A DNA stretch of 63,947 nt, counting the filler, from Folioceros fuciformis (Eukaryota), in the NCBI GenBank assembly GCA_049999805.1. It is 12 parts of 12 records of this genome, joined end to end, with 100 filler letters (N's around TTAATTAATTAA, not from the genome) between each part and the next. Parts side by side here need not be neighbours in the genome. Positions count along the whole stretch, not along the records: positions 5,161 to 18,213 come from JBNGIO010006062.1; positions 18,314 to 22,086 come from JBNGIO010006063.1; positions 22,187 to 28,972 come from JBNGIO010006065.1; 9 more parts are not named here. The stretch is one strand, 5' to 3'. Each line of letters begins with the position of its first letter. Positions within the stretch are counted from its first letter, which is position 1. This document shows, one piece after another, positions 5,061 through 29,072 of this stretch. A model generated the notes under the pieces. It saw only the letters and a list, made by a program, of their open reading frames with translations, searched no databases and was not told the origin of the DNA. The translations under genes were made by a program, and so were the position numbers.

Positions 5061-5160
5061 NNNNNNNNNNNNNNNNNNNNNNNNNNNNNNNNNNNNNNNN
5101 NNNNTTAATTAATTAANNNNNNNNNNNNNNNNNNNNNNNNNNNNNNNNNNNNNNNNNNNN
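5061..5160. other. Artificial contig linker (six-frame stop TTAATTAATTAA within 100 nt); also at 18214, 22087, 28973, 40634, 42474, 46473, 53376, 55490, 61459, 62742; plain 100-N gap at 5586-5685
   Basis: Identical N-padded linker repeated 11 times. Confidence 0.97.
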
Positions 5161-6387: not shown

Positions 6388-6429
6388 ACCACTCTCCTGT
6401 GAAGGTAAATTGGCCTTTAAGTGGGAGGT

Positions 6430-6725
6430 TGTAGGGTTATTAAAGCCCAATGTGCTTAGACTAATGTGATTAGTCTAAGATTAGTGTCTAATTAAGTATT
6501 ATTAGTTTAGATTAGCTTAAGCTAATCTTTAGGAAGCTTCTTGTGAAGCTTCTTGTGACCTTCTTGTGAAGCTTCATGTGAGCTTCTTGTGAAGCTTCCT
6601 TGGGAGCTTTTCTAGAGGGTATAAATACCCTCTTGAGCTCCTTTGCAATAGAGCTGTGAAAGACACTGTGAGACCTCTCTTTCTCCTCTCCTCTTCTCTT
6701 CTTCTCTCCTCTCCTTCACCATGCT
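6430..6725 (+). repeat. Partial 3' LTR of copia B with short GAAGCTTCTTGT repeats and a TATA box
   Basis: Polypurine tract AAGTGGGAGG then TGTAGGG; tandem 12-mers at about 6532-6610; TATAAATA at 6620; right end not resolved. Confidence 0.65.
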
Positions 6726-7641: not shown

Positions 7642-7839
7642 TAGCGTAGGATCGATAGCACAGAGCGTAGGGAAAAGAAGATAGATTAAATTATGCAATG
7701 TGTGTGTGAGGCCTTAAAGGCCATGTCCCATGAACGAGTACGACGGTTGACGGGTAACGTAGCGCTAGGGCACCGTGCTTTAACCTAAACGATAATTAAC
7801 GCCGGGCAGCGAGCTAGTATAGCGCATCCACTTTCGTTA
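7642..7839 (-). repeat. 3' LTR of copia F
   Basis: Matches 11630-11827 with 10 substitutions by manual count; preceded on the minus strand by AAGTGGGGG. Confidence 0.93.
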
Positions 7840-8365
7840 CCCCCACTTAGGCTGCATTCCTGCCATTGTGAACTTCGCATGCGCCGTAAACTCCGGCCGT
7901 CCTTAGCTTTCACATACTCTCCATCTGCAGATTCGATTGCAGCTATGCTGAACGTGGGCGGCGTTTCTCACTTGGACGGCAGCTTCGTCCTCTTGCTCCT
8001 GAGCTTGGCAAAGAGGAGCGACTGCGCCAGAGGATGAGATTGTTGCATGCTCAGTTGCGGCGGCTCAAGGGGTTGTCTCCTGCTTCTGATGAGGAGGACT
8101 TCCGCAAACTGTCGCCATGTCAAGGCCTTGCAATGATTTTGGATACTACTAGTTGTGACGCAGAGGGTAACCTTGTCTTCAGGTACGCTCCCTTTTGGAG
8201 GTGTCCTAAGGTGACAGCGGAGATGGCAAGTTTGTAGTTTTGCTTGTAACACACAGAGAAAAGCAAGCACAGCTGTTCCATGTTGTGCCCATCTGCCCCC
8301 ACTGTTTATGAAAAACGCTAACCCTCTGTGCACGTGCGTGCATGTGCTATGCAATTGTGCACGGA

Positions 8366-9481
8366 TCAAGGGTTCGTCTTAGCGACAAGACCCAAGCCTT
8401 CGCAGTGAGTGGTATGGCGGTCCTTCGGCAGTGGCTTCATGAACAAGTCAGCTAAATTCTGGTCTGTGGGGATATAGACTAGGTTTATCTCACCTGATTC
8501 TACTATTTGTCTGATGTAATGCTGCTTGATAGCAATGTGTCTTGTCCGCGAATGATGCAAAGGGTTTCTTGACAGGGCGATGGCGGACTGATTGTCACAG
8601 TAGATAGTTGTAGCACCAGGTTGAGGGAAGCCCACAGATGTCATGAAGCGCTTGTTATATACTGTCTCCTGAGCAGCTGACGTTGCGGCTGTATACTCCG
8701 CTTCGGTGCTGGAGAGTGCCACCACAGTTTGTCTGTTTGACGTCCAGCTAACCGCACCTCCAGAAAGGATTGTACAATTGGCAGTAATAGATTGCCTGGA
8801 GTCCTCGTCACTTGCCCAGTCAAAATCAAAATAGCAGATAAGTAGAGGAAACTTTCCTTGTGACTTGTATTTGAGTCCGAGATACTGTGTGCCTTTCAGG
8901 TAACGCAAAACTCTCTTAACCCCTGTCCAGTGGGCATTGCCAGGATTGGCAAGGAATCTCGAGAAGATTCGCACAGCTGGAGACACATCAAGTCTAGTCC
9001 ACCCACTGATCCAGATGAGGCATCCAGTGAGCATGCTGTAAGGTTTCTTTTCCATTTCCCGTTTCTCAGATTCTGTCTTCGGACTTTGCTCTGTGGAGAA
9101 CTTCTCTCCCACAGCCATGGGAGTAATGTCTGGCTTGCAGTCTGTCATGATAAACCTCTCTAGCCTTTGTCTTATGTAGTGTGCTTGATGACATAATATG
9201 CTTCCCTTGTTTGGACTAATATGTATCTGTATGCCTAGGAAGAAGGTGAGCTGACCTAGATCCGTCATGGAAAACTCAGTAGTGAGAATCGACCTGACCT
9301 TCTTCATGATGTCAGGGGAGTTAGCAAATATCAATGCATCATCTACGTACAATGCTAGGATTGCAAATGTCTGCCCTTGCCTTAGGATGTATACGTTCGT
9401 ATCAGCATCACTTTGGCTGAATCCTGACTGAATTAGGTGCGCTCTTAAATTCTGAGCGACTTGGGTCCAAATAAAGCACAT
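8366..9481 (-). pseudogene. copia F reverse transcriptase (C-terminal part) and RNase H
   Basis: [54 protein letters not shown]-terminus, gag, protease and integrase absent. Confidence 0.9.
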
Positions 9482-11617
9482 TTAAAAAACCTAATCTAGC
9501 CTGCATTTACTATCGCCCTGTCCCACGCCGCTGGCGGCTTCCTCCTGGCCTCCGCACGTCACCCCTCGCTTCTCCTCCTCTCGCTCTTCTGCCTCTCCGT
9601 TGGTCCGGCAGATCCTCCCAGAGGATCTCCACATCACTGCTGCTACTGCTGGGCCTGGCTGGCGGTGCAGGTGGGTCCCGCAGCTGTGGTCCACCACCCT
9701 TCCTCCTTCTCTGGTTGCTGAGGACAGCCACAAGCCCCCGTTCTACCCAGCGCTGGGCCTCCTCTTCCGTCAGTTCCTCCAGAATTGCCTCCGCATAGCA
9801 GTGGGGCAGCCCTGTCACCCACCATTTGTAGTGGTAGAGTCCCAGGCGCGTCCTCAGTTGTAGGACGTAGCCCCGCGTCCCTCCTGTGCCCATATGTACA
9901 TACAGAAACAGCTTCAGAACTCTGGCCCCTTCTACATACAGGCCTGGCACATAGGAGGCCTCCTCCTCTCACACCCTGCGCCGTCTCTCCCTTCCTCCTG
10001 GCGCTTTCTCCTCTTTCAGCCGCTTCACGCTTCAAGTTACTCCCGCTCCCCGTATTTTTGGATGCTGGACAGAGCTCCCCTTTCTCTAGGGTTTTTATAC
10101 CCTGCCTGCTTTCTCCCCTTACGCCCGTCGGGCTACCTCCAGTCGTCCCTCTGGTAACGGTTGCCCTGCTGGCTACCGTTGCCCCGTCACCTCGGGCCCT
10201 TACTTTTGCCTACCTTAATGTTCTCAATGACCCGAGGGCCAAGGAGGCACTTGCTGCTTCCCCCTCCTTGTCCCGCTCTCCCGTACTCCCCAAACCCCGA
10301 AGCCCAAGGTGGACTTTGGGTGTAAACACCCCGGTCTCACTCGCTTACTAAGCCGATTCGCCTGTCCCTTTACAAAAGAATCACAACCTGCTCATTCCGT
10401 CGCTCAAAATGGGGGTTCTGAAAGTTTTTTTTCGTTCACAACTACATCAAAAGCTAGCGTGCCAAGGGTACTAATGGAGCTTGGTGGAGGATCTAGAAGG
10501 GCATAGACTTCCGAGTAATCAAAAGGATTTTCTCGAAAGACAAGATGTAGAGGTGCCTCTTCAGATCCAGATGCTAATGACTCTTCAGGTGTTCCTTCAG
10601 ATCCAAGAACCGGTGACGTTCTAGATGTTACTTCAGATCCGACCCTCTCAGGTGACGTTTCAGATCTCAAGCTTGAAGGTGTCGCTTCACGTCTAGCAGG
10701 AATCCGGCGAGGTGGCCTCCCTGCAGGGCTTGGATCCCAAGGTTCCGACATGCTCAAGCACCATCTTCGGCAATTCTGAAGGGAAGTTTGGCAGAATTTG
10801 CTGGAGATTGACAAGTGTGGTCTCTCCTGATTCAGCAATTACTGACGTCATGTCATGTTGCTTCTTCCTTTTGCAGTTCAGTCTCAAAGACTTCCTCCGT
10901 ACTAAGCATGTCCCTGACTACTGTCGGGATTGACTCTTGTGTGATGCTTGATCCACCATGCACTCTAGCAAGTTGTGTTGGCTTAGGGACTGGCCGAGCA
11001 GGTACCTATGAAATTAGAGTGTCTAATTTGTGGTTGATGTTACAAAATCTAGTAGTTAAGTCTGCAATGTGGTTGCGCAAGATTACGACTAATTCGTAGA
11101 CCTCGACCAGAAGCTGTGTTGCAGGTGAGGGATAGGAATTTATGTCGTTTGTGCAATCTCGACATAGTGAGGTACGACCATGTGCCAACCTTTGTGCAGC
11201 CTGAGCAGAAATGTTATGTGCCTGTGCGATTTCCTGCCGAATCTGTGTGCGTAAGAATGTAGTGGGTCAGGTTTGTGCCTAGTGGGCTGATTGACAGTGC
11301 GTCGATGCTGGTGCAGGTTCTTGCACTGTGAATTAAAGAAGTGAGTGAGCCTTCGATGCTGGAGTTCGACAGAGTCTCCTGAATGGATCGACGAACTGCT
11401 GTTTGTCTCTCCCTCTAAATCTCGGCATGGCGGCGCGCACTAGCTGTAGTAGTGCTCAACGGCGCTTGCAAGAAAGGAGTCAGCCATCTCCCCGAAGCAG
11501 CTTAGCAATTTCTTGAGTGCGGCGAATCACTGCCCTGAAATGTGAGTGGGGCAGATTTTTTATGCTGCCTATGCGTCAGCAGATCGCACAAATGCTAGGG
11601 GAGGCTAAGTCCATCCT

Positions 11618-11629
11618 GCTTTGATACCA
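11618..11629 (-). promoter_or_regulatory. PBS (tRNA-iMet) of copia F
   Basis: TGGTATCAAAGC, one mismatch to TGGTATCAGAGC, abutting the LTR. Confidence 0.85.
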
Positions 11630-11827
11630 TAGCGTAGGATCAATAGCACAGAGCGTAGGGAAAAGAAGATAGATTAAATTATGCAATGTGTGTGTGAGGC
11701 CTTAAAGGCCATGTCCCGTGAACGAGTACGACGGTTGACGGGTAATGTTGTGCTAGGGCACCGTGCTTTAACCTAAATGATAATTAACGCCGGGAAGTGA
11801 GCTAGTATAGGGCATCCACTTTCGTTT
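11630..11827 (-). repeat. 5' LTR of copia F
   Basis: Direct repeat of 7642-7839, same length. Confidence 0.93.
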
Positions 11828-12289
11828 CAGCCCGCAGCATGCGTGGATCCGCCCCTAGCAACGCCTACCTGCAACCCGGCCTGCCGATTCGGCCAGGCTC
11901 CCTACTACCAGCCATCAACCTTATTCATGCCGGCCAGGATTCGGCCCCGATCCGCTACCGTTAGCCCAGCTAGCCAATCAGCCAGGCTTCCCGGATCCGC
12001 CAGCAGCCAGTCTGCTCATCGACAAGCCAGGCCGCCTGCCATGGTTGCCTGGATCCCGCCATCTCGACCCCGTCCAATCTTAGCGATCCGGCCGGGCTTG
12101 GATTCACCTGCCAGCCTGCCAGGTCGGCCTAGCTATCTGGCTGAATTTCCCCTGAAGCTGGTCTACCTGCCGACCAACCAGGCCGCCCGCAAGCTAGCCT
12201 CCTCTGCCCGGCCTCGACCAGCCTACCTGCCTCCACCGGATCTCGCCCCCTGCCAGTATCCGACCAGCCCATCACGGCGATTCGGCGTC

Positions 12290-12579
12290 GGCCGCTTGCC
12301 AGCCAGCCTGCTGCCGTCCTGGCTTCCTGGTTCCGCCTGGCCGGCCAATGCCAGGATTTGCCTGCCTGGACTCCAGCAACTGGGCCTGCGCGCTGCTGGG
12401 GCGCATGCCCGCCCTCAGCAGTTGGGCCGCTTGCCAGCCAGCCTGCTGCTATCCTGGCTTCCTGGTTCCGCCTGCTTGGCCGGCCAATGCCAGGATTTGC
12501 CTGCCTGGACTCCAGCAACCGGGCCTGCGCGCTGCTGGGGCGCATGCCCGCCCTCAGCAGTTGGGCCGCTTGCCAGCCA
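12290..12579. repeat. Recent tandem duplication of about 135-139 bp (about 2.1 copies)
   Basis: ggccgcttgccagcca recurs at 12290, 12425 and 12564 with near-identical intervening sequence. Confidence 0.9.
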
Positions 12580-14421
12580 CTGCAAACCGCCTGGCCAGCC
12601 TGCTGGATCTCCAGCCGGGTCGCCTGCTTGACCCAGCATCGGCAAGCCCCAGCTAGCCCGCTTGCCGCTACTAGGCTGCCTACTACTGGGCCAGGCTGGC
12701 CTGCTGCTCCGGCCCTTTAGCAACCTCCCCGAGTTGTCTAGCCTCCATCTGATCGGGACTGGACAGCCACGATCAGCTGGCCTGACCGCTGCTGGTCCAG
12801 TGCCGCCTGCATGCCTCCAGCCCAACCAGCACACCCAGGTCCACCCCGACTAGCCCGGCTAGCCGACCAGCCTGCCTTCCGGATCAGCTAGCCAAGCTGG
12901 CTGCAGGCCGGCTGATCCTGCTGCGCTCTAGGCTAGCCATCGACTCCTAGGTCTGGCTAGGCAGTCAGCCCGCGGGTCGCCTGCTTCCTAGATGCCGAGT
13001 CGCCTACCACCTAGTTGCCCGCTCCAGGATCAACCAGCCAGCCTGCCGTCGGCCTGGCCTTCGAATCCGCCAGCAACCAACCAGCCCCTGCCGATCGGCC
13101 CTGCATCCGGATCTGGCCAGGCAGCCCGCCCGCCGAGCTGCCTGCTGTTGGGCCGGGCTGGCCTGCTGTCTAGGTTCCTCAGCAGCCAACAGCCTCCAAC
13201 CGGCCCTCGGCCTCCTCCTGACTGCGCAGACCAATCAGCTCGATCAACCTGGATCCACCTCCGCCAGCCAGCCTACTTCCACCCGCCTAGCTAGTCTTTT
13301 GTTGGTTGGATTCAGCCGGAACCCCAGCCTGGACCCGACCCCGTGCTCAGCCTGGCCTGGACGCTCCTTAGACACAACATCACCCCCTTGCCCATCTCGC
13401 CTGCGCCAGGCAGCTGCTGCCTAGCTGGATCTATCTGCAAGTCACCTGCCGGCTGCCTTCCCACGCTGCCGACTCCTGCTCAAGATCCTGCAACCAAGTC
13501 ACTGCCTGGCTTTCAAGTCTCGCCACATTCATCCGGAGCCCTACCCCAGCCACCTTGTTGCCTGATTGGTTTTGAACCGCCTGGATCTAGTCGCCACCCG
13601 CCTAGCTTGGATTCAGCCGCTGCTGAGCCAGCCCAACCAGGTCCACCCCTGACAGCCGCCATGCGCTCCACCAGTCTTCCCAGCCCGGGTCCACTCCTAG
13701 CCTGGGTTCGGGCCTGATTTTCTCCCACCGGCCCAACTAGCCGCTTAGCCCTCCGGCCCGCTGAACCCGGCCACCTTTGCTCTCGTGACCCTTGCCTAGC
13801 CAATGCGCCATGAGCAAGGGCCCGTCGTCCCCGTCTTTTCTTTTCCCCCTGATCCCCGACTTGCCCTTCCCACGCATAGTCCTAGGCTTCCACACACATC
13901 CAGACGCCCTAGCCAAGGGGACTAGACCCGTGGCCTACCTACCACACATCCCACCAAACCCCTATCGACTCACCGTTAATCTAACCTAATCTTCTAACCA
14001 CTCCTCAACGAATTTCAATCAGAAAACCAACCCAAAAAAACAAACTCTGCCATTTCCTAGGGGATTTGCTCGTCATGTGGACTCCATAGGGAGCCAAGAA
14101 TAGCCAGGGAAGGAAAACGTGCCATAGACACGCATGCGATGGGAGGAGGGGGGCCTTTGTCTTTATGGAGTTTGTGACTGCCACTTCATCTCTACTAATG
14201 CCTTCATCCGTTTTCATACCAGTCCTGACCTCCTGCCTTTTTACCAACTTCATAGGGGTGGCGGCTGGATTTGGCAGACGATGCACCACCATGGAAGCCA
14301 TGAAGAGAGGAAGATAAAGCAAGCTTGATAGGAATAGCTTGCATGTGTTACGATATATAATCTGGGTTCAGGGTTATATATATATATATATATTTATATA
14401 TACATAAGTAATCGTAGCTGT

Positions 14422-14573
14422 TGTTAGCAGCCTAAAGTTTAGGATTGTGAATAGTCATGACTCTTGACATTTTTGTATATAAGATATATCAGTGCTTAAT
14501 TTAAGAATCCTTTTTTTTTTGGCAATTGAGTGAGCATGCGTTGCTCTCAAAAACTTTAACATGGTATCAGAGC
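14422..14573 (+). repeat. Short 5' LTR (about 140 bp, TGTTAG...TTAACA) and PBS of copia C
   Basis: TGGTATCAGAGC at 14562-14573 directly after TTAACA; left edge inferred from the terminal inverted repeat only. Confidence 0.75.
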
Positions 14574-14879
14574 TTCTTTTCTTTTTTTTCTTTTTTTTTC
14601 TTTTTTTTTCTACCGCAGCGCGGAGGTGTGCTGGAAGCGGTGCATGTGTCTGGTGGCGTTTTATCCCTACATGCAAAGGACGCGGAGTTAGTTCTTTTTC
14701 CTTTCCCCAACCGCCATCACCTAATGTTTGCTGCCGTCTGACCCCCTGGTCTTCCTTCCATGTCGCTTTGCGCTCCTTCTACCAGCTTTCCTGCTATCCA
14801 TCTTGACGCACTTTCTGAAGAAGGTCCTGGTGCGGCTTGATCACCCGCAACCTCTATCTTCTCCAAAAAGCGAGTCAGA

Positions 14880-17800
14880 ATGGCGACAGCAGGAGGGGGA
14901 GGAGGAGCGGGCGGTGGTGGAAGTGGGGGAGCAGGTAGTGGTGGAGTGATTCCTCAGCCACTCCCGCCTGTCCCAGTGATTCCACAACCTTCTTACTCAG
15001 TTGAATTTAAGGAGCAAGATCGCTTTAATGGCATGAAGTTCGAAGGTTGGAAGGTGCGCATGACAGCTGCCCTGCAAGCGAGACACGTTTGGGGAGTTGT
15101 TAGCGGCACGCGGCATCTTGTGTGGCAGACTGTGCAGGTTCCTTAAGAACCTGCACAGTCTGCCACACAAGAAGAGAAGGACAAGTGGGCAAACCTTAAT
15201 TATGTTGCTCGTGCCATCATCATAAGCGGGCTGGACGAGACTCTCCTTGCGGATGTTGCCTTCTTAACCAAAGCTGAAGACATCTGGATCCTGCTCACAC
15301 AGGCATATGAAGCTAAGAACATTCTTACCATTTGTGCTGTGCGTGGTGAACTCTTCTCTTTGCGGCTTAAGGAAGGCGATAAGGTGTCCCCATTTGTCAT
15401 TCGTTTTCGTCAACTGCGGGCTCAACTCATCAACCTCGGCTCACAATTCCCGGAGCTTGATGCTGTTAGCCAACTTCTGACCAGCTTGCCTCCTAGCTAT
15501 CAGACTTTTGTCTCCAGCTATGGAGCAACTGTTCGCACTGCCGATGCAGCTAGAGCAGCCGGCCAGCCAACCAACATCAACCTGGCTGATGTGATTGGCG
15601 CCCTGCTACAAGAGGAACAAAGCCGCAGCCACTCTACTGTTAGTAGTGGTCGAACCAAGGCTGATAAAGTTCTCTATTCTCAAGGTAAGAATATCAGAAG
15701 GAAGCCTACCTCCGGTGCAGGTGCAGGCTCTTCTAAATCCACTTCTGTAAAGAGATCTGGCGCCTGTAACTGGTGTGGTGTACAGGGCCACTAGGAACGG
15801 GAGTGTAGAAAAAAGAAATCAGGGGAGCCATGCAAAGCTGAGAAGTCCTCCAGACAGGCTGAAGCTCATGTGGCATCCAAGGATCGACTTTCCTCGTCGA
15901 CTTCAACCAAACCGCCTGTTGTCATGACGGTTTGCCTTGCATCTTCTGCTCACCCTTCCCCACAAAGTTGGTATATCGATTCAGGGGCCACTTCTCACAT
16001 CTGTAACGATAAGTCACTGCTCAATCATTTTCGTTCTTCTCAAACTACTGACAAAGTGCTTCTGGGAGATGAGCTTACACGTACAGGTTTGAAGATAGCA
16101 GGTTCTGGCTCCTGTCGTTTCCGTCTCCGGGACGGTTCAGTCCTTCACCTGGACAATGTTCTTTACGTCCCTCATATGGCTAAGCACTTGTTGTCCGTTA
16201 GCCAGCTTATGTCCCTACGCACCTATGATTTGCTCTTCTCTTCTTTCCGCTGTGAGCTTAAGACGAGAGGGGAGGGAGGTCAGGTTGTTGCTACTGGACA
16301 TATAGTACATGACTTGTATCAACTTGATTTAATAGTCATACCTCCAAATTCTGCTCATGTTGCCCAGTCGTCGCAAGCTGCTCAGGCCAATCTTTGGCAC
16401 GCCCGCCTAGGTCATGCCAACCGTGACAAGCTGATAAAGATGTCTAATCTGACCTGCTATAGAGAGCCTCTGCCAAAATGTTTTAAGGACCTGCCTTTGT
16501 GTGATGCCTGCGTTATAGCAAAACAAAAGGAGAGACCCTTTCCAACATCCAAGGCACATCGAGCTTCACAGATTCTGGAACTGGTACATGCAGATATCTC
16601 TGGAAAGGTCCACATACCCTCTTTGGGTGGAGCTTTAAACTATTTTACACTTACCGATGATTTTAGTCGGTATTCTTGGACATACCCGATGCGGCTCAAG
16701 TCTGACACTTTTGAACTCTTCCAAGAGTGGCTGCAAATGGTCCAAAGGCAGACTGGTTGCTTGTTGAAGTGCCTACGTACCGATAATGGTACAGAATTTA
16801 CGCATGGCCACTTCAATCAGTTTCTTCTGGATCAGGGTATTGTCCGCCAATTGATTGTCCCCTATACCCAGGATCAGAACGGCGTTGCTGAACGCCGTAA
16901 CCAGATTCTGTTAGGGATGACTCGTAGTATGTTGGAATGGTCGGGTCTTAGCAAAGCATACTGGGCTGAAGCAGTGGTAACGGCAACTTACATTCTCAAT
17001 CGTCTTGTGACAAGTGCTGTGGATGGTGCAAACCCCTATGAGGTCATATGGCGAAGAAAGCCGAGTCTACTTCATCTCAGAGTGTTCGGCTCTCCAGCCT
17101 ACTCATATGTCCCTGAGGAAAAGAGACACAAGTTAGATGCCCGTGCCAAGCCACGATTGTTTGTTGGTTACGATGAAGAAGTAAAGGCGTACAAGCTTTA
17201 TGATCCCCTTACCAATTCTGCGATGTTCGCCAGGAGTGTCACTTTCCGTGAGCTAACCAGTCTTGCAAAGCCGTATTTTGATTCGGTGCCCTATACCCCT
17301 TCCAACTTTACTGTCATCGACGTTGTTGACGAGGAAGATACATCTGAGTTTCCCCAAGATGATTTTGTGGCTGCAAGCTCAGAATATCCCCTCGTGTTTG
17401 ATCCTGCTATTCAACATGCCCCACCAGGCGATCCAATTGTTCCCGACGAGGATCCTGCAGCAGATGTTCTTCCAGAATTTGCTGAGAATGCTGAAGATCA
17501 GGCCGGTGCTCCTGCACCTGTCCCAGCACCTGCAGATGATGAGCAAGCGAATCAGGACATTCTAGACGATATCTCCCAAGCTTCAGATGTTTCAGTCGAC
17601 ACCCATTTGTTACCTAATTTTGCAGTGGAGGCTGAAGATGACATCCCTATACCCGCTCCACCAGCTGAGCGCAGATATCCCGTCCGAGAGAGGTTATCAC
17701 CAACTCAGTGGAAAGAACCTCCATACCAGTCAATCGATTTTCGGCGTCCAAGGGCAGGCCTTTCTCTGAAGGGTGCCACTGAGGAACTTCTTGTTTTCAA

Positions 17801-18213
17801 GCCCGAGCCCCGTACTTATACTGAGGCTATCACTGGAGCTGATCAAGCTCATTGGATACCCTCCATCCAAGATGAATACGATTCACTTATTAAGAATGAT
17901 ACATGAGAACTTTGCCCTCTGCCTGCGGGACGCAAGGTGGTCAGCTGTAAGTGGGTATTCAAACACAAACTCAATGAGAAAGGCGAGATTGCCAGATATA
18001 AATCCCGTCTTGTCGCTCGAGGCTTCACTCAAATTCCGGGTGTTGATTTCCATGACACCTTCAGCCCTGTTGTCAAAACACAATCCATCAGAATGATACT
18101 TGCTCTTGCCGCTGCTCATGCCTGGGATTTGTAGCAGATGGACATCTGTACTGCGTTTTTGTATGATGAGCTTGAGGAGGATATCTACATGCAACAGCCC
18201 GAGGGTTTTGTTG
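14880..18213 (+). pseudogene. copia C gag-pol, single frame with four in-frame stops
   Basis: ORFs at 14880, 15339, 15870 and 17937 share one frame; zinc knuckle CNWCGVQGH*EREC, WYIDSGATSH, GAG-pre-integrase LWHARLGH, RTDNGTEF, RT CKWVFK; stops at 15144, 15792, 17904, 18132. Confidence 0.92.
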
Positions 18214-18313
18214 NNNNNNNNNNNNNNNNNNNNNNNNNNNNNNNNNNNNNNNNNNNNTTAATTAATTAANNNNNNNNNNNNNNNNNNNNNNNNNNNNNNN
18301 NNNNNNNNNNNNN

Positions 18314-20480
18314 CTTTTATTCCTTCTGAGTAGCCTAGAAACAGCATAGCCTTGGCCTTAAATTCCAGTTTGGTTCTGACTTCCTTTGGAATATGGATGA
18401 ACACTTTGCAGCCGAATATTCTAAAATGAGAAATATCTGGCTTAGAGCCTGTCTAGCGCTCAAAAGGAGTCGCCCCTGGGAAGGATGAAGTTGGGAGCCG
18501 ATTTTGGATATATGAGGCTGTATGGAAAGCCTCCGCCCAGTACCTTCTGGGAAGACTTGCTTGGAATAACATGGCCTTTGCACATTCTTGAAGATAACGA
18601 CTTTTCGATTCCGCCAAAGGATTTTGGCTTGAACTATAGGGCACTGTTAATTGCCGAACTATGCCAAGGGACTAGCAGTTTTGGTGAAATTCGAGGCTAT
18701 TAAACTAACCTCCGTTATCGCTTCTGAGAACTTTCAATTTTCAGCCTGTGTGCCTTTGTGAGTATTCAACGTACTGCATGAACTTATCCAAGGCCTCTGA
18801 CTTATGCTGCAGGAAATAGGTTACTGTAAACCTGCTAAAGTCGTCTACTATCACCATGAAGTATAAGGCACCTCCAAGTGACTTCGTGGACATCGGTCCA
18901 CATAGATCAATGTGGACCACATCTAGTAAATCTTTCGCCCGATTATGTTCAACATTTTTCTTTGGATTTTTCTTAGGCATTTTTGCATGAATGCAAGCTT
19001 CACAAATAACCTCTGTTTCATCAACCTTCCAGTTTATCTTATTCCGATACAGGTTCTGTTCTGGCATGCTCTTCATCTTAATATAATTCGGGTGCCCTAA
19101 TCTGCAGTGCCACAGCAACTGTTCACTATTAGCACCAAGCGTCTTGGCCAGCAGAGCTGTCGATATGATGCTTCTACCCTCTGGTTCTCCGAGGTGAGTT
19201 CGACAATCCAGTTTATACAAATCATTCTCTAGCATCCCCGTAGCTAAGGGCTCATGACTAAGAGAATCTATCAGCTCACATGATGCTTCATCGAACATAA
19301 TGTTCAGTCTCCACTCTCTACAAAGGTGTCTCACAGATAAGAGATTTTTGGCCATCTGCGGAACGTGGAGCACCTGGTGAAGTTCTCTAACAATTCCACC
19401 GCTCAATACTATTCTCACACTCCCTGTTCCAGCAATGTTCAGACCACTTTCATCACCCAGGAGTACGAACTGTCCTGGTGGGCGTGACTGATATTTATAA
19501 AAGCTGTCTCGGGTGTAACATATATGTGCCGAGGCACCAGAGTCAACGAACTAGGTACGTTCATATGATTTTGCATGTGCCAAATAGACTGCAAGGATAA
19601 TGTTCGCATTTGACGTCTTTTGTCTGCTTGTAACATTTGCCTCGGGTGACACTCTGCGAGGCTCAACGGCTCTTTTCTTTCTGCAGTCGGCTTCTATGTG
19701 TCCCATAAGCTTGCACCAATTACATGTCAAACGTTTGTGGTTAGGATTCGAAAAAGTTCTACCTCCCACTGGCTTGGGCCTTCCCTGCCATGACTGTCTG
19801 TTGGCGAATCGACCTCCACCTCCACCATGAACTCCTCTACCAGCATACGAAGCCCTGTTGTGTGAGCTTTGTCCTCTATTAGAGTTCATTGATGCTTCTT
19901 CCTCCAATAACGCCCCTATAGTGTTTGATAGGGAAATAGCGTTTGCTGCTGCTGTTCGAAGGTTACTATTTTGTGTACTAACAAAAACACGGTACCTGTC
20001 AGGTAGCGACATCAATAGGGCCACCGAGGCCTGCAGTTTTGAAACCTTTGTTCCTGCTGTCGCTAATTTTTGCCTCAGGTGTCTGAAATGCATAACATGT
20101 TCCTCCACACTCTCTGACTCTCTCATTTTACAGTTCCAGAAAGAACGTGTGGCATGAACCAGCGAGGACTGGTTAGTTGTGGCAAACATCTGCGATAACG
20201 CAGTCCATGCAAGATGAGCCGAGGTGGCATCTTCGATATGATGAATCATCGTGTTGTCGATGGTAAGCTCCAATATTGCTCGTGCTCTTAGATCTTTCTT
20301 AACCCACGCAGTTATGTCTGCTGCAGTTGCGTTTGCACCTGGATGTGCCACAGTACCATCAACAATGTCCCACAGTTCTTCTATTTGGAGCAACGTCTTG
20401 ACTCTGTGTGCCTAGACGTCGTAGTTGGATCCTGAGAAGCGATCCTTATCCTTACAGTCCAGTTTCATGGCGTTGGCCAT
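18314..20480 (-). pseudogene. copia D gag-protease-integrase (degenerate)
   Basis: MANAMKLDCKDKDRFSGSNYDV*, CNWCKLMGHIEADC, *FVDSGASAH, LWHCRLGH, HIDLCGP, YWAEAFHTASYIQNRLP. Confidence 0.9.
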
Positions 20481-20725
20481 TTGCGCTGGATTTCTCCTTT
20501 GATATGAAGAGGTCTGCTGCAGCCAATTCGGGACGTTGCCATGAAACCACTACCTCGAACTGCTGGAGGTCGGAGAGTCGGATCTGTGCCTCTGTCCCAG
20601 TTGATGTCCGGGTCCAGGTGAGCGACCACGTCGCCCTACGTTACTTAATTTGTCGTCAGAAGTTAATCTGTGGATAGGCATTCCTTTGTTCCCACTTCAA
20701 GCTTTTGTGATTTTACATCACCTTG

Positions 20726-20942
20726 TGTAGATGCGTCAAAATTTAGGACGGCATTGAGCAAAGGCGGAGCTTGCACGAATACTCACACACTTTATTCAGG
20801 CTTATGTTTCTTAAATACATGCGATTTATCAGTTATTCAGTTATCAACTGAATCCTATGAAAGTAACTAACTCTGCTCCTAACGAGCGACGAAACTAAAC
20901 CCGTTCATTAAATACCTGGGGGTTTCTTACGGGTTTCTTACA
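20726..20942 (-). repeat. Probable 3' LTR of copia G
   Basis: Minus-strand AAGGGAG purine tract then TGTAAGA at 20942; AATAAA inside; candidate end TCTACA at 20726 (uncertain). Confidence 0.55.
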
Positions 20943-21002
20943 CTCCCTTAGTTTCTAGCCGTTAGGTTAGATAAAATAATCTTTGATTACTACGAATTCA
21001 CT

Positions 21003-22086
21003 CTAATTAATACTCTTCAAACCGAGTGTCGCTACATGCTTCTCATGTTTCGCTTTTGCCAAGGCCTTCGTGAGGATGTCTGCAGGATTCTCCTCTGTTG
21101 GAATGTAATGTAATTCGACATCGCCTCTTTCCACCAGCTGACGTATATAATGGAATCTCAGCTCCACATGCTTCTTTCTCGAATGGAAAACCGGATTCTG
21201 GCTGAGGGCAATGGCGGACTGTGAGTCTGAATGCAACTTTGTTGCTTGATCATACTGCATCCCTAACCCCTGCGCAAATTGACGATGGCACACTACATCT
21301 TTTGCAGCTTCAGTGCACGCTGAATATTCAGCTTCTGCAGATGAAAGACAAATTGTCTGTAAGCGCTTGCTGCTCCACGAAATTGCAGCTGAGGCTGCAA
21401 CCACTGCGTAGCCAGCCGTTGAACGCCTCTTCTCCAAATCTCCAGCCCAATCACTGTCTGAATATGCTGTGAGTTGTAACTTAGGTACACTGCGTCCTGG
21501 ACTTCTGTTTGCTTTATAGATCAAGCCATATGATGCTGTGCCTTTAAGGTAGCGCAGAACTCTCTTCACAGCAGTCCAGTGCTCATTCCCGTATGCTTGA
21601 AAAAATTGGCATACTTGTGATACAGCTTTACTAATATCTGGACGAGTCGAAACTTGCAAGTGCTGCAGCGATCCGCATGCATTTCTATATGGAATTCGTT
21701 CCATGAGCTGTATATCCTCCGTTGACAGAGGTGCTGGCATTGGCACTAACCTTACTGATGTTGACATTGGTGTAGCGATAGGCTTTGCAGATTCCATGTG
21801 AAACTTCCTCAAAACTTGCTGCACATACTTCTCTTGGGACAAGGTAATTGTACCTTCTGTTCTATCTCTCGTTATTCTCATCCCTAAAAACGAATGAAGT
21901 TCACCCATATCTGTCATGGAGAACCTTGTTGACAAGATATCTTTGGCCTTCTGCAGCATATCTGGACTATTTGACACTAAAATAGTATCATCTACATATA
22001 ATGCAAGTAGTACAAATCCCTGAGAGTCTCGCAGGATAAACACATTGGTGTCTGACGGATTCTGTTCAAATCTGCATGCAATCAGG
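21003..22086 (-). CDS. copia G RT-RNase H (partial, cut by gap)
   Basis: LALYVDD, YSDSDWAGD..RRSTAGY, LSSAEAEY, NPADILTK. Confidence 0.92.
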
Positions 22087-22494
22087 NNNNNNNNNNNNNN
22101 NNNNNNNNNNNNNNNNNNNNNNNNNNNNNNTTAATTAATTAANNNNNNNNNNNNNNNNNNNNNNNNNNNNNNNNNNNNNNNNNNNNTATAATATAACCCT
22201 AATCTCATTATGCCAACATCAATACTCCTTCACTCCCACTTGTTGGATTATGACGATTCGGACGTCTCCTCTTCGCCTTCTCTAACACGGGTCGAGTGTG
22301 AGACTGTGAGCTGAGCTGAAAGCTCCGCTGTGTGCATGTACTGGGTTGCGCCGACACCTTTGCCTTTAAAGAAACGCGATGGAGCGTATCTGCACAAACT
22401 TGGGTAGCAGGTGCGTCGCGACCCTTATAGCATCCCTCCTCGCTTCAAGTCCTTTATTTGTAAGCTGTTGGAGCGTAGGATCTCTGAGCTCAAG

Positions 22495-23365
22495 ATGTCG
22501 TCTTCAGCTACTGACTCCCCTCCTGCAAAGCGCCGTGTCTGCCATCGTGACAAGCTAGGGCGGTTTGTGAGCAAGCCGACTAGAACAGCCGCCTCCTCTC
22601 AGCAGCAAGGATCGGCAAAGATGCCTGCTCCTGCTGCTCAAGGTGGCAGCGGCGGAAGGCGTTCGCGAGGGAGGCCGCGCGGCACCACCAAAGCTTTTCT
22701 TGATCAGCGGCGCTCGTCAGAGACTACAGCCTATAAGACAAAGGCTGCTGTTGCGTGTAAGGCAGCTCCCCGCAAGACGGCTACCCCTAAAGAGAAGTCT
22801 CTTTCAAGGGATCAAAGTGCCAAGTTCCGCTTCAAAGCTGGTGAGTTCGCGTATGCTGATTCTGACTATAGGCCTACTGTGCCGATAAGATTTCCAGTTC
22901 CTACACACTCTGATGAGGAAACCAAGATTGTGAGCCTTGGTTCTTTTGCTATTCCTTGTACCCCTCTGTGGTATAAGTGCCCTTACACCCATCTGAAGAT
23001 GATACGAGTGAGGATAGAGCACTGCCGCGAGTATCAGCGCCATGTGGTCAGCTTTTACAGTAAGTGTTCCCTGTCTACTTTTATGTCAGCATCCCCATTG
23101 CTTTCTTCTCACAGTTCTCTAACAAGCTCCCACTTGCCCTGCAGGATCTGAACTAAGGCTGGAGGAAGAGCACAGCCTTGAGACTGAGGAGAGGATCTCC
23201 TACGTGGAGCGTAGGAAGAGAAACTCTCCAAGATCGGATGAGAGCTTCACCACTCCTTCCGAACATGATCCTGATTCCTCTGAGCCTGATTCCTTTGGCA
23301 GTCGTGCAAGTGTGGCTGTAAATAGTGTGGAAGAAAACAGCGTAGACTGGGGATATGACTGGTAG
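22495..23365 (+). CDS. Predicted two-exon antisense accessory gene of copia E (261 aa; NLS-like, AT-hook, acidic tail); exons 22495-23059 and 23145-23365
   Basis: GTAAGT donor at 23060, CTAAC branch site at 23119, TGCAG acceptor ending 23144; the phase-1 splice keeps the frame open to TAG at 23363-23365; motifs PPAKRR and RSRGRPRG. Confidence 0.72.
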
Positions 23366-23374
23366 TTTGGGTCA

Positions 23375-26300
23375 CTAAACTGCAGGACTGAGGAAGTCAT
23401 TCGGCTTCCCCATTCCTAAACATTTCATGTGCCTCTCGTGCAGCTCCCTACCTAGGGCTTTTGTCATAATATCTGCTGGATTTTCTGCTGTTGGCACATA
23501 CTCAAGTATAACCTGTCCACTCTTAATCAAGTCTCTGATGAAATGATACTCCACCTCAACGTGTTTTGTCCGTGAGTGATGCACAGGGTTTTGTGCAAGG
23601 TTTATAGAACCCTGACTGTCTGTTTTGATCACTGTGCAGGTGGGGTGAGGTAGTCCGAGTTCATTGAAAAGCAGCTTGCACCAAGCAATTTCTTTAGAAG
23701 CGGCTGTGAGGACACGGTACTCGGCTTCTGTGCTTGAAAGAGCAACCGTTGGTTGCTTCTTGCTGGACCAACAGATTGGTCCCCCAGCAAACATGACGAT
23801 ATATCCAGAGACAGATCTTCTACTGTCTATGTCACCAGCGTAGTCTGAATCGGTATATACATCCAGTTCAAGGGAGGCATCAGGTTTGTATTTGTAAACG
23901 ATTCCATACTGTGCTGTCCCCTTTAAGTATCGAAATACCCTCTTAACACAAGTCCAGTGCTCCTGTGCAGGGTTTTCCAAGTATTGTGAGAGCACACTTG
24001 TGGAATATGCCACTTCAGGACGAGTAGTGTTTGCTGCATATATGAGCTTTCCTACTGCCTTGCGGTAAGGGATAGGAAGCATTTTGTCCTTTTCAGCTTG
24101 CGTTTGTGGGCTCATGGATTTGCTGAGCTTAAGTCCACTTGGTAGAGGTGTGACTGCAGGCTTTGCATCCTTGAGTCCAAGCTGGTCTACGCTATCAAGA
24201 AGGTATCTTGGTTGAGTGAGAGTTAAAACTCTTTTCTTTCGATCTCTCTGAATATGAATGCCAAGGCAGCTTTGTAAAGCTCCTAAGTTTGACATATCGA
24301 ACTTCTTGGATAGGAGGCCATTAATTTTTGTGATAAAGGAGGGACTGTTACATGCGAGTATCAAGTCGTCCACATACATAGCAAGGTAACATACAGTGTC
24401 TCCAGCCCTATAGACATACAGGCTACTGTCTGAAACACATTTGATGAAGCCTAAAGCTCGCAGTTCCTCATCTAAGACTGCATTCCATTCAAGAGCTGAC
24501 TGTTTTAAACCATACAGGGTCTTGATTAGGCGAAGAACATGGTCCTCTTTTCCCTTTACTACGTAGCCCATTGGTTGCTGCATATAGATTTCAGTATCCA
24601 GCTTGCCATGTAAGAAGGCTGTTTTGACGTCAAACATTTCCAACTCATAGTCATGGTGTGCTGCTACTGCGCAGAGAACACGAAACGTGGCTAGCTTCAC
24701 CACAGGAGCATAAGTTTCCAGATAATCCAGACCTGGTACTTGGGAGAAGCCACGAGCAACGAGTCTGGCTTTGTACCTATCAAAGGTACCATCTGCTTTA
24801 ACCTTGAGTTTAAATACCCATTTACAGGACACCATTTTGCGTCCAGGAGGTAATTTTGCGAGTTCCCAAGTGCCATTCTTGATGAGGCTGTCATACTCAG
24901 ACTGAACGGCCTTTTTCCACTCTGCAGCATCTGGCCTACTCATAGCTTCTTCATAGGTGCGAGGCTCTGTAGGGTCCAGACTCATAGCATTAGCACGTGC
25001 TGAACTTGACCAGAAATCATGTGATTGATAGTAATCAGGTGCACGTCTTTCTCTTGCAGGGTATCGACGTTCAGGTGGGGGTTCAGGATGTGGTAGCTGT
25101 TCAACTGCATCAGCATCATCATCACTGTCCAGAACAACGGCTGCATCGTCTGCAACGTCATCATAATCTGGATCTAGTATGTCCGGTTCTGGTTGTAGCT
25201 CAACAGCAATGGGAGGTTGCTGCTGCTGCTCATCAAGGTCAGCAAAAGCATCGTCCTCTGCTGGGTCAACTTGATTAACTTGATTATCTTGATTATCATG
25301 CTCATCCCCCCCTGCAGGAGCAATCTCCTCAGGTGTTGAGTCATCAAAGAAAGTGATATTGGGGAGAACAGACAGATCATCACTATCATCTGGAGTGGGA
25401 GGTGTTCCCACTGGCGTCCAAACACGTCCTTCGTCAAAGGTAACGCTTCGTGCATATACCACCTTGTTCTGAGGGACATCATACAGTTTATAAGCTTTTA
25501 TGCCCTCAGTGTAGCCTATCATAAGGAGTTTTCTGGCTTTTGCAGATAGCTTCTTACGCTTCTCCTTCGGGATGAAAGCATAAGCGATACAACCAAAGGT
25601 TCGAAGATGAAGGATAGACGGTTTCCTGCCAAAGAAAGCCTCATATGGCGTCTGACCGACAACTGCAGTGGTAGGTAATCTATTTCGTAAATACACAGCT
25701 GTCATTAGGGCCTCAGCCCAATAGGGCAATGGTAAGGTAGCCTGATGCAGCAAGGAGGAAACCATCTCCTGCAAAGTCAAATTCATGCGCTCTGCAACGC
25801 CATTTTGCTGTGGTGTATACACGACGGTGAGTTGGCGCCCAATACCCTCCTCTGCACAATATGTTTGAAATTCGTTAGATGTGAATTCTCCTCCGTTATC
25901 GGAGCGGAGGGTCTTGAGCTGTTGTCCTGTCCATCTCTCAACAAATTTTAAATAAGTTTTGAATTGAGAGAAGGCTTCACTTTTGGCCTTCAAGATATAA
26001 GCCATGACAAACCTTGTCTTGTCATCAGTGAAGGTTAAGAAATACTTGCCACCACCTATGGAAGGCTGTGACAGTGGCCCACAAATATCAGTGTGGACTA
26101 GCTCGAGGACATCAGAGGCTCTGTGTGGGGTCCTGTTTTTGAAGGCTGCTTGGTGACGCTTAGATAACACACAAGCTTCACACAGGGGTAAGGTAGGAAG
26201 AGTGCCAATCTTTCCATCATAGTATAGGTCACTGGTAGCCAGTTTTTGCAGCTTAGCACCATGTGGATGACCTAACCTATTGTGCCATAATATGGCTTTG

Positions 26301-27733
26301 TCTGTTTGATGTGAAGGTGAGAGGTCACCTTGTGACGTCAAGTGGGACTGCACAGGGATACTGTGCAAGTGAAGTCGGAATAGATCATGGTCAGAAGATC
26401 CATAAGCTAAAACCTTGCGATGATCAAATGCATCAAGGATCTGGCACTCTGTGGGGGTAAACAGAATGTGACTGTTGTTGTCTATGTTCAGTTGCCTGAC
26501 AGAAATGAGGTTCCTAGTCATTCCAGGCACATAGTAAACATTGGTAAGGGACAGTTTTAGCCCTGAAGGGACAGGAAGGAACACTGTGCCCTTTCCTGGA
26601 GATACCAATGCCCTGTCATCACCTAAATAGACAAACTGATCCTTTACTTGTCTGTAGGTGGAGAAGGCACTTCTATCAAAGCAAATGTGCGCTGTTGCAC
26701 CTGTGTCTAAGTACCACTCTTGAAATGGTCTAGACTCTGCTATGGCAGATAAGCATGTGGGAAAGACTAGAGGTTGAGCAAACTCCCTTACCCCTACTGT
26801 CAGGGCGGAAGGAGAGGATTGCTTCTTTACTACAACGTGTGTTTCAGCATTTGCATTGCCCTCCTTGCGAGGTATGCCAGCCTGCTTCTTACGACACTCG
26901 TTTTCCCAATGGCCGGGAATTTTGCACCAGTTGCATTTCCCGGTCTTCTTGGGTTTCTTCTGTGAGGAAGCTCCCTGTGAGCTCCCTGCAATAGGTGTAG
27001 TATTTTTGCCTCTAGGGTATGGTTTGTTTCCTCTGCCCTTCTTTGAGGTGTAGAGTGCTTGCTGTTTCCCATGCTTAGGTCCACCTCTCGTGGCTTCTTC
27101 TTGAAGAAGTGCTCCCACTAACTCAGAAAAGGTCATGGGAGGTAGCTTGATCCTGGCTGCAGATGCCAGTTTCTGAGCTTGTGCCTGTGAGGTGTTATAA
27201 GAAGTCACAAAATTCGACCAGGAGGCAGGTAAAGAAAGCATTAAATAAAGTGCTAACATATCTTCCTTGATGGCTTCCTGTGTTGTTCCTTCCAACTTAG
27301 AAACAAGATGTCTGAAAGTAGCAATGTGCTTTTCTACTGAGTCACCATCTCGCATCTTGCAGAGTTGAAGGTTTTTGAGGGCTGCCATCTGACTGGTTGA
27401 ATTTCCACCAGAGTAAAGCTCACGAAGTCTAGACCAGATATCTGATGCAGATACTGCTCCTGAAGTGTGCCTCAACATTTCAGAGGTTAGGCCACACCGT
27501 ATCATGTACATGGCTGCGTCATTTCTGACTGTCCATGCCTTGACAGTTGCTGCATCATCTGTATCTAACTTATCATCTCCGGTTGTTACATCCCAGAGTC
27601 CTCTGTTCTGAAGAGCACCCTGCATCCTCATTACCCAGATATCGTAATTCTCCCCTCCGAACCTGTCCTTTTCCTTAAACATGTCACTGCCTATGTTATA
27701 GGACAGTTTGGGTGTGGTATCTTCGTCACCCAT
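23375..27733 (-). CDS. copia E Gag-Pol polyprotein (1452 aa, uninterrupted)
   Basis: Gag, CNWCKIPGHWENEC, WYLDTGATAH, LWHNRLGH, HTDICGP/RSDNGGEF/QNGVAER, YVDD, YTDSDYAGD, NPADIMTK. Confidence 0.97.
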   Translation of the reverse strand: MGDEDTTPKLSYNIGSDMFKEKDRFGGENYDIWVMRMQGALQNRGLWDVTTGDDKLDTDDAATVKAWTVRNDAAMYMIRCGLTSEMLRHTSGAVSASDIWSRLRELYSGGNSTSQMAALKNLQLCKMRDGDSVEKHIATFRHLVSKLEGTTQEAIKEDMLALYLMLSLPASWSNFVTSYNTSQAQAQKLASAARIKLPPMTFSELVGALLQEEATRGGPKHGKQQALYTSKKGRGNKPYPRGKNTTPIAGSSQGASSQKKPKKTGKCNWCKIPGHWENECRKKQAGIPRKEGNANAETHVVVKKQSSPSALTVGVREFAQPLVFPTCLSAIAESRPFQEWYLDTGATAHICFDRSAFSTYRQVKDQFVYLGDDRALVSPGKGTVFLPVPSGLKLSLTNVYYVPGMTRNLISVRQLNIDNNSHILFTPTECQILDAFDHRKVLAYGSSDHDLFRLHLHSIPVQSHLTSQGDLSPSHQTDKAILWHNRLGHPHGAKLQKLATSDLYYDGKIGTLPTLPLCEACVLSKRHQAAFKNRTPHRASDVLELVHTDICGPLSQPSIGGGKYFLTFTDDKTRFVMAYILKAKSEAFSQFKTYLKFVERWTGQQLKTLRSDNGGEFTSNEFQTYCAEEGIGRQLTVVYTPQQNGVAERMNLTLQEMVSSLLHQATLPLPYWAEALMTAVYLRNRLPTTAVVGQTPYEAFFGRKPSILHLRTFGCIAYAFIPKEKRKKLSAKARKLLMIGYTEGIKAYKLYDVPQNKVVYARSVTFDEGRVWTPVGTPPTPDDSDDLSVLPNITFFDDSTPEEIAPAGGDEHDNQDNQVNQVDPAEDDAFADLDEQQQQPPIAVELQPEPDILDPDYDDVADDAAVVLDSDDDADAVEQLPHPEPPPERRYPARERRAPDYYQSHDFWSSSARANAMSLDPTEPRTYEEAMSRPDAAEWKKAVQSEYDSLIKNGTWELAKLPPGRKMVSCKWVFKLKVKADGTFDRYKARLVARGFSQVPGLDYLETYAPVVKLATFRVLCAVAAHHDYELEMFDVKTAFLHGKLDTEIYMQQPMGYVVKGKEDHVLRLIKTLYGLKQSALEWNAVLDEELRALGFIKCVSDSSLYVYRAGDTVCYLAMYVDDLILACNSPSFITKINGLLSKKFDMSNLGALQSCLGIHIQRDRKKRVLTLTQPRYLLDSVDQLGLKDAKPAVTPLPSGLKLSKSMSPQTQAEKDKMLPIPYRKAVGKLIYAANTTRPEVAYSTSVLSQYLENPAQEHWTCVKRVFRYLKGTAQYGIVYKYKPDASLELDVYTDSDYAGDIDSRRSVSGYIVMFAGGPICWSSKKQPTVALSSTEAEYRVLTAASKEIAWCKLLFNELGLPHPTCTVIKTDSQGSINLAQNPVHHSRTKHVEVEYHFIRDLIKSGQVILEYVPTAENPADIMTKALGRELHERHMKCLGMGKPNDFLSPAV

Positions 27734-27859
27734 GTTTGTAGGATTTAACAGACACTAATGTGTGAAGTTGTAACCTGTGCTGTGCAGGTTAATCACAACA
27801 GAGTTCTAGGAACAGATGTTAGGGGACAAATGATACCTGGTTCATGAAGACATCAGCAA

Positions 27860-28567
27860 TCACAGAACATAAACAGGGTTTGAAACTCTGCACTGTGCTG
27901 CTGTTGAACTGTTTTCTAGTTTTAAATGCCTCATCTTCCACTTATTGTTTGCGTGGGTGGAGTATGATGGGCAACAATTGGGTGCATCAAATCTGTGACT
28001 TCTGTTTGTCTTATTTGTATGCCTGCGTAATACTCCAGAATGAGGGGAATTAGCAAGCAAATGTGATCTCGACAAAGTCAACAGTTTGAAATTCAGGTGA
28101 GAGATTTGTTCTTTCAGACTTTGAATACCAGCACTAGACTCAATAAGGCGTCGAATGACACTGCCATGATTTCTTTTTATGTGGTTTTGATATGATTCAA
28201 GCCTGGTTAGTAACTGAAAAATCCCTGTGTCTGATGCAGCATGTGTTGTGAGAAGTCCCCTATGATTAGGGTTACCACCAGAAGATCGTTGCAATCGCAC
28301 CACTTGTGGAATCGACTGTCTGGGAAAGTAAGGAGCAAAAGTCAAATATCTCTGACCAGGGTAGAGAGTCTCCACTATTGTATTGAAGGCCTCCTGTAGG
28401 TTTCTGCAGAGATCAGGCAGATCTTGATTGCGCAACAGCCATGTCACAATGTGTTGATGGATGTACTCAACAAGATTGTGCCTGTTTTGATTTCCATTTT
28501 GCTGCCTCCTGTTGTTGTTTGCACGCTCAACAGGAATGCGCCAGACATTGTTTCCATTGGTAGCCAT
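27860..28567 (-). CDS. Extra upstream ORF of copia E, 235 aa, function unknown
   Basis: ATG-initiated intact ORF between PBS and gag; N/Q-rich start, heptad-like segment IQSLKEQISHLNFKLLTL. Confidence 0.6.
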   Translation of the reverse strand: MATNGNNVWRIPVERANNNRRQQNGNQNRHNLVEYIHQHIVTWLLRNQDLPDLCRNLQEAFNTIVETLYPGQRYLTFAPYFPRQSIPQVVRLQRSSGGNPNHRGLLTTHAASDTGIFQLLTRLESYQNHIKRNHGSVIRRLIESSAGIQSLKEQISHLNFKLLTLSRSHLLANSPHSGVLRRHTNKTNRSHRFDAPNCCPSYSTHANNKWKMRHLKLENSSTAAQCRVSNPVYVL

Positions 28568-28914
28568 TTACGGCTAAATTTGTAGAAGCTTGTAAAATGC
28601 AAATTATATGCATTTCTGTAAGCTATTCTCTATAATTTTCAGAAATCTGTATGCAAGATCTGCGGTTGTTCTAGTGTACCTCTACCAGAATTGCCTAAGG
28701 CAATCTGACTAGAGATGCACTGGAACAAGATCCAGGTTTAGCACATCTCCTTATAAAATATAAAGAAAATTTCTACAAGAATTTTAATATGTTCTTTTCT
28801 TTTCTCAAAAAGAAACCTAATTTCCTTTTGAAAGAAAGCAAAAGAGACATGATTGTGCATGAAATTAAATGCACAATCTAATGTACACTCATGTGAATGT
28901 AACCTACATCAGAA

Positions 28915-28926
28915 GCTCTGATACCA
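28915..28926 (-). promoter_or_regulatory. PBS (tRNA-iMet) of copia E
   Basis: TGGTATCAGAGC preceded by ...TTCTTA. Confidence 0.92.
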
Positions 28927-29072
28927 TAAGAAATTACATGCAGATGTAGATTTATTATAAAAATAACATTGTNNNNNNNNNNNNNNNNNNNNNNNNNNNN
29001 NNNNNNNNNNNNNNNNTTAATTAATTAANNNNNNNNNNNNNNNNNNNNNNNNNNNNNNNNNNNNNNNNNNNN

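Follow-up and report, generated by a model that had tools for sequence, protein, structure and literature searches.

The window, a 63,947-nucleotide (nt) stretch of Folioceros fuciformis DNA (assembly GCA_049999805.1), includes two retrotransposons, named here E and F, which an initial annotation of positions 7642-28972 had proposed to belong to one copia lineage with a three-gene plan: a 5' open reading frame (ORF), gag-pol, and a 3' antisense ORF. Our analysis leads, with moderate confidence, to another view, according to which E and F are probably two different Ty1/copia elements that share no accessory-gene plan. Judging from its sequence, E is a structurally intact, autonomous Ty1/copia element with expanded untranslated regions. 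Each of these regions carries one orphan extra ORF. F is an old, internally deleted, non-autonomous copia element, apparently of another branch than E, and what had been taken for its leader and antisense ORF is ordinary non-coding sequence. The result is at present largely corrective, the lineage-wide plan having been built on chance matches and one deleted relic.

Comparison of elements E and F

The similarities between E and F had been put forward with the caution that they were short and could be due to chance, a caution borne out by shuffling. The leader peptides IQSLKEQISHLNFKLLTL of E (28126-28073, minus strand) and IADLTTRFCNINHKLDTL of F (11068-11015, minus strand) are indeed identical at 7 of 18 positions, but this is the level expected by chance, as an identity of at least 7/18 was found somewhere in the F leader for 191 of 200 shuffles of the E leader ORF. 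The F peptide is located in a frame of less than 100 codons that meets a stop two codons after it. Of the two motifs described as common to the antisense peptides, SDEE is present in both elements (22909-22920 in E and 8085-8096 in F), but the pattern P[LF]W..CP, said to follow it, matches E alone: E has PLWYKCP 14 amino acids after SDEE, and F has PFWRCP, with a single residue from W to C, 31 amino acids after SDEE. At least one common 4-mer was found in 1607 of 2000 shuffles in the comparison of the antisense frames. Smith-Waterman alignments of the E ORFs against the three F frames were matched by 52 of 300 shuffles for the leader and by 242 of 300 for the antisense ORF, and nothing significant was detected between E and F outside pol by tblastn (E-value 1e-3), blastn, or tblastx. 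At the level of these tests of homology, which were pairwise, E and F appear to have no detectable similarity, in protein or DNA, in their extra regions. The long terminal repeats (LTRs) of both elements do end in TA directly ahead of a primer binding site (PBS) starting with TGG, as had been annotated.

Long, coding-looking leaders and antisense ORFs located after RNase H had been ascribed to both elements, and they were found in E only. The longest frames in the F leader have 144 and about 87 codons, the annotated peptide being in the latter, and the length of the 144-codon frame was matched in 107 of 1000 shuffles; for the F 3' region the corresponding values were 91 of 1000 when frames were measured from stop to stop and 545 of 1000 when they were measured from ATG. 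The assignment of F to Ty1/copia is based on its LTR pair, a 5-bp target duplication, a PBS with one mismatch to that of E, and a partial match to PF07727 in a remnant that is 39% identical to residues 1090-1448 of the E polyprotein. Gag, protease, and integrase were not found, and F is thus not autonomous. The GC-rich stretch that occupies their place (9500-10400) has long frames on both strands, with no match in Pfam and no similarity to copia proteins, and a tblastn search of the 2.1 kb between the F PBS and the reverse transcriptase (RT) remnant with 125 copia polyprotein queries gave a best E-value of 0.015. The F LTRs appear to start with T/A-AACG and end in CGCTA, unlike the usual TG...CA, despite the perfect GGCTG duplication. 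Of the complex copia clade with accessory genes that had been suggested, what stands is the three-ORF layout of E, which is not supported as a trait common to E and F.

The two elements come from different contigs. The window includes 23 runs of N, of which 22 have 44 N and form 11 pairs around TTAATTAATTAA, and one has 100 N. The linker N44-TTAATTAATTAA-N44, read directly at five of the 11 pairs, consists of six-frame stop spacers and is located at 5061-5160, 18214-18313, 22087-22186, 28973-29072, and seven further places. Since the linkers are spacers between separate contigs, neighborhood across them is not genomic. The range 7642-28972 covers three unrelated contigs (5686-18213, 18314-22086, and 22187-28972), and E, F, and the element at 18314-22086 are each found on a contig of their own. 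The features of E and F are listed in Table 1.

Table 1. Coordinates of the features of elements E and F in the window.
Feature	Position	Strand	Basis or remark
E, whole element	22187-28972	-	one contig
E 5' LTR, last 46 nt, ending ...TTCTTA	28927..28972	-	sequence; contig stops inside LTR
E PBS, TGGTATCAGAGC	28915..28926	-	exact motif match
E leader, 1181 nt from PBS to gag ATG, 39% GC, several short upstream ATGs	27734..28914	-	
E 5' sense extra ORF, 235 codons, ATG to TGA	27860..28567	-	
E gag-pol, 1459 codons, open from 27754, ATG at 27733	23375..27733	-	Pfam
E 3' antisense extra ORF, 219 codons counted from ATG; stop-to-stop frame of 247 codons, open from 22408	22492..23151	+	
E purine-rich runs (candidate polypurine tract) and probable first bases of 3' LTR	22187..22290	-	inferred from sequence
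F, whole element	7637-11832	-	
F target-site duplication GGCTG, perfect, 5 bp	upstream 11828..11832, downstream 7637-7641	-	alignment of LTR borders
F 5' LTR, 198 nt, ending ...CGCTA	11630..11827	-	95.4% identity to 3' LTR
F PBS, TGGTATCAAAGC, one mismatch to that of E	11618..11629	-	
F leader-like region, 1.2 kb, no significant ORF	10401..11617	-	
F GC-rich (60%) stretch, 0.9 kb, at place of gag, protease, integrase, and N-half of RT	9500..10400	.	
F open 371-codon remnant, C-half of RT and RNase H	8366..9481	-	PF07727 profile positions 132-242 only
F antisense open frame, 115 codons, with SDEE and PFWRCP	7890..8237	+	length within chance
F 3' LTR, 198 nt	7642..7839	-	LTR pair alignment

The extra ORFs of element E

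The single gag-pol frame of E encodes, in copia order, a copia gag (PF14223, residues 44-223), a protease barrel (PF22936, residues 347-423), a pre-integrase domain (PF13976), an integrase (PF00665, residues 551-648), an SH3-like domain (PF25597), and RVT_2 (PF07727, residues 960-1204), with RNase H after it. The integrase is upstream of RT, and the copia-type gag and RVT_2 share one frame, which places E in Ty1/copia. The PBS motif TGGTATCAGAGC is probably of the tRNA-iMet type. No LTR pair is found inside the contig, which includes only 46 nt of the 5' LTR on one side and stops near the start of the 3' LTR on the other, with 1188 nt from the pol stop to the contig end.

The two extra ORFs of E exceed the length that chance would produce and are non-random. 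The length of the 5' ORF was matched by none of 1000 dinucleotide shuffles of the leader and that of the antisense ORF by one of 1000 shuffles of the 3' region; when blocks of 60 or 120 nt were shuffled so that local composition was kept, the counts were 0 of 2000 for the 5' ORF and 0 to 2 of 2000 for the antisense ORF. In a codon-usage model trained on the copia genes of the window, with z values calculated against random open frames of equal base composition, z was 3.0 for the 5' ORF and 4.0 for the antisense ORF, compared with 4.3-5.3 for three held-out RT/RNase H ORFs and 0.8-2.3 for four control ORFs.

Three other explanations of the 5' ORF were considered and rejected. A duplicate of gag is ruled out as there is no similarity to the polyprotein of E itself. 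An N-terminal extension of gag is ruled out by four intervening stops: the 5' ORF is in the gag-pol frame, a coincidence expected one time in three, but the four stops within 105 nt separate the two. A GT..AG stretch of about 31 nt is located downstream of the 5' ORF stop and is therefore unable to join the 5' ORF to gag.

No relative of either ORF was found. There was no Pfam match for either, to Transposase_28 or to any other domain, and a word-based search of 5.8 billion proteins, restricted to the 'near' length band, gave no match to either at an E-value of 0.01 or less. A full HMMER search with the 5' ORF against 1.84 billion representatives gave one match, to P0121 (E-value 2.2e-4), which is a translated tandem repeat aligned in four stretches and is considered an artifact. 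In the Atlas search the 5' ORF had a best score of 0.79 and the antisense ORF had no usable match; metagenome scans, one for each extra ORF, and a scan of viral contigs with a nine-row copia alignment gave no match. In its AlphaFold model the 5' ORF product is drawn as four long helices, and that of the antisense ORF is mainly coil with one hairpin at residues 17-27. The antisense product has a basic, low-complexity N-terminal half, encoded by GC-rich DNA, and a Cys/His-rich C-terminal half; it is basic and probably disordered, and it includes an RGRP stretch that we take to be AT-hook-like. The GC content of the antisense ORF stretch, 54-58% versus about 45-47% in pol, hints at acquired sequence.

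It is possible, although not probable, that the long ORFs of E are not genes of the element but relics, without function, of coding sequence that was captured or rearranged recently, or simply lucky frames, and that they are still open only owing to the youth of the family. The failure to find homologues and the poor structure models of both ORFs agree with this explanation, as does the GC-rich, low-complexity N-terminal half of the antisense ORF, a composition that eases open frames; a passage in Neumann et al. was also counted in its favor. The lengths of the ORFs, however, lie far past those of shuffles that keep local composition, the 5' ORF is found in sequence of 39% GC, where stops are frequent, and both ORFs begin with ATG and have codon scores like those of coding sequence. 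The odds that the two orphan ORFs are working genes appear to be near even. That E represents a copia family with two real accessory genes, one 5' and sense and the other 3' and antisense, whose products are without relatives and whose gag-pol is located behind a 235-codon upstream cistron, we consider unlikely.

Several points weigh against the ORFs of E being genes. Their transcription, their translation, and any function are inferred. Recognition values in the Atlas are low, at 1614 for the 5' ORF and 1500 for the antisense ORF, and the AlphaFold models, made from single sequences, are poor, with mean predicted local distance difference test (pLDDT) values of 38.9 and 41.3, respectively. 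The codon-usage test separates weakly, as the two chance-length frames of F reach z values of 2.7 and 2.4. The leader has several short upstream ATGs ahead of the 5' ORF. Finally, diverged pieces assembled from sequencing reads have a 1-nt deletion at 28558, within the 5' ORF, although this carries little weight for or against.

These pieces come from an inspection of sequencing runs over E, none of which, among those listed as containing it, is recorded as RNA. The DNA runs X1 and X2 contain E (0.91 of sampled words) and yielded contigs nearly identical to it, the depths of which are not readable as copy number. Low-depth pieces of roughly 84-91% identity, with gaps, cover the leader and 5' ORF (27757-28282, 28041-28394, and 28329-28884). 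Low-depth pieces over pol likewise have 1-nt gaps (at 25634 and 26417), and as gaps are present in both regions they do not discriminate coding from non-coding sequence. Run X4 gave only two short pieces over E. Run X3, from the same sample, differs from E at about 594 places, almost all of them C>T (257) or G>A (317), and was excluded from the reading of variants; its appearance is that of a bisulfite-type library, which could serve to follow the methylation of E.

We take both ORFs of E to be real coding sequence, or coding sequence recently acquired by the family of E. On the genomic RNA no long cistron would precede the 5' sense ORF, the 235-amino acid product of which is predicted to be helical. 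Gag-pol starts 1.18 kb from the PBS, with many AUGs ahead of it, and its translation would then depend on a shorter transcript, on an internal entry site, or on shunting or reinitiation. The antisense ORF, with a 219-amino acid product, would need an antisense promoter of its own in or near the 3' LTR, as is described for the antisense ORFs of the gypsy elements Grande, RIRE2, and Retand. The products would probably regulate or aid the cycle of the element itself. If the two ORFs are genes, copia elements could build the 'complex' plan of large gypsy elements, and E would offer a small, intact model for the roles of orphan accessory ORFs and for the translation of gag behind a long upstream cistron.

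Phylogeny and other elements in the window

The initial annotation had proposed an RT/RNase H phylogeny as a check on its idea. A database search with this region of E listed 120 matches, among which no protein exceeded 50% identity. Of these, 35 were aligned with four elements of the window (E, F, and those at 21006-22085 and 61564-62463) over the approximately 360 residues retained by F; other fragments in the window are too short or do not include the region. In the careful tree the long-branch row Adiantum was dropped, which left 34 references and 38 rows. The references are generically named or nameless database proteins, not REXdb domains. E and F fell in one clade (support 96/96) that comprises five of the 38 sampled rows, but they are not sisters, either in this tree or in the one with all 35 references: F groups with the element at 21006-22085 (95/83), and the sister of E is the database protein P0035, the window element at 61564-62463 being next to this pair (98/89). 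The clade is probably the host's own copia stock. The sister of F is a compact element with 552 nt between its pol stop and gag, which leaves no room for extra genes. Two points limit this result: the approximately unbiased (AU) test leaves a sisterhood of E and F unrejected (p values of 0.15 and 0.19, with log-likelihoods 16-17.4 worse), and the references were picked from the best matches of E itself, so that the sampling is biased. On these alignments the tree speaks against the idea of a shared lineage without excluding it.

It is very improbable that a single complex copia lineage unites E and F, with an ancestral 5' gene and 3' antisense gene that diverged past pairwise recognition and decayed in F: the common clade, the unrejected sisterhood, the at least 1.2 kb from the PBS to the next recognizable domain in both elements, their LTRs ending in TA, and the fast evolution attributed to extra ORFs in the survey of PMC6317226 would fit such a history, but similarity between E and F did not exceed chance in any of the tests, the ORFs of F are no longer than chance allows, its 3' region has 527 nt against the 1188 nt of E (to the contig end), the spacing from SDEE to the second motif differs, the compact sister of F would require a loss of the plan, and the F 'leader' is indistinguishable from sequence introduced by deletion or rearrangement.

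The contig with the compact element (18314-22086, minus strand) has RT/RNase H at 22085-21006, followed by the 552 nt and then by gag to integrase at 20453-18315. This is a compact copia assembled in permuted or tandem form, or else a pair of elements with one LTR in common; no TGGTATCAGAGC-type PBS was found in the 552 nt with up to two mismatches allowed. A further copia on the plus strand (14562-18213) has an exact TGGTATCAGAGC PBS and is truncated within the RT region by the end of the contig; its gag homology begins about 410 nt downstream of the PBS, and its leader is thus short. Another copia family is represented by 1-3780 and by copies at 29073-32298, 40734-42473, and 53476-55489 that are 98-99% identical to it and found in both orientations; this family is multi-copy and young.

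The contig 55590-61458 carries 1043 nt at both ends that are 100% identical and 4826 nt apart, which suggests an LTR pair or a repeat assembled as a circle; no match to the E polyprotein was found inside it. An open frame of 1024 codons at 43390-46464 (minus strand), with DUF659 (E-value 2.7e-37) and a hAT dimerization domain, apparently encodes an intact hAT transposase. Tandem arrays of 11/22-nt units (GGTTAGGTCTAGGTCAGACCTA-like) and of 41-nt units are located at 33540-33803 and 40222-40543. Rfam gave no match within the window.

Relation to known elements

Copia elements with extra ORFs have been recorded before. The REXdb survey of Neumann et al. (2019, PMC6317226), which counted such ORFs from a length of 250 codons upward, reports them in 582 Ty1/copia elements, where they form 45 mutually dissimilar groups; they are classified by position and orientation as eORF-5'F, 5'R, 3'F, and 3'R, and most groups are without known domains. 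The ORFs of E, with 235 and 219 codons (247 for the latter when measured stop to stop), are below the 250-codon minimum of that survey. Its main text, as regards copia, discusses only the sense 3' ORF of SIRE, and its per-element data are in supplements, which may hold copia elements with the layout of E. A limited literature search, which is not proof of absence, retrieved no paper in which a 5' sense ORF and a 3' antisense ORF are described together in one copia element.

Among copia elements, SIRE/Maximus, with its env-like ORF, resembles E in having an extra ORF after pol. The SIRE ORF, however, is a sense ORF (eORF-3'F), present in 74% of SIRE elements according to PMC6317226, and that of E is antisense. 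The layout of E, with a 5' sense and a 3' antisense ORF around gag-pol, is described in the literature compared here only for Ty3/gypsy Tat and Ogre elements (PMC6317226, PMC7264820). The 5' ORF of Ogre, a Ty3/gypsy element, is like that of E a sense ORF located between the 5' LTR and gag; 57% of Ogre elements have the plant mobile domain PF10536 as reported in the same survey (PMC6317226), in contrast to the 5' ORF of E with no Pfam match.

Antisense ORFs located between pol and the 3' LTR are described by Vicient and Casacuberta (2020, PMC7264820), in the part compared here, only for the gypsy-type elements Grande, RIRE2, Retand, PvRetro13, and Boty, and that of Grande (gene23) has its own upstream promoter. 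The antisense ORF of E is like those of the Tat-type gypsy elements (Grande gene23, RIRE2, and Retand) in its position, its orientation, the absence of relatives, and the obscurity of its function. It differs from them in that the Tat-type ORFs, as they are described there, belong to gypsy elements and are kept in most copies of a family, while E is a copia element, and its ORF has no sequence similarity to theirs.

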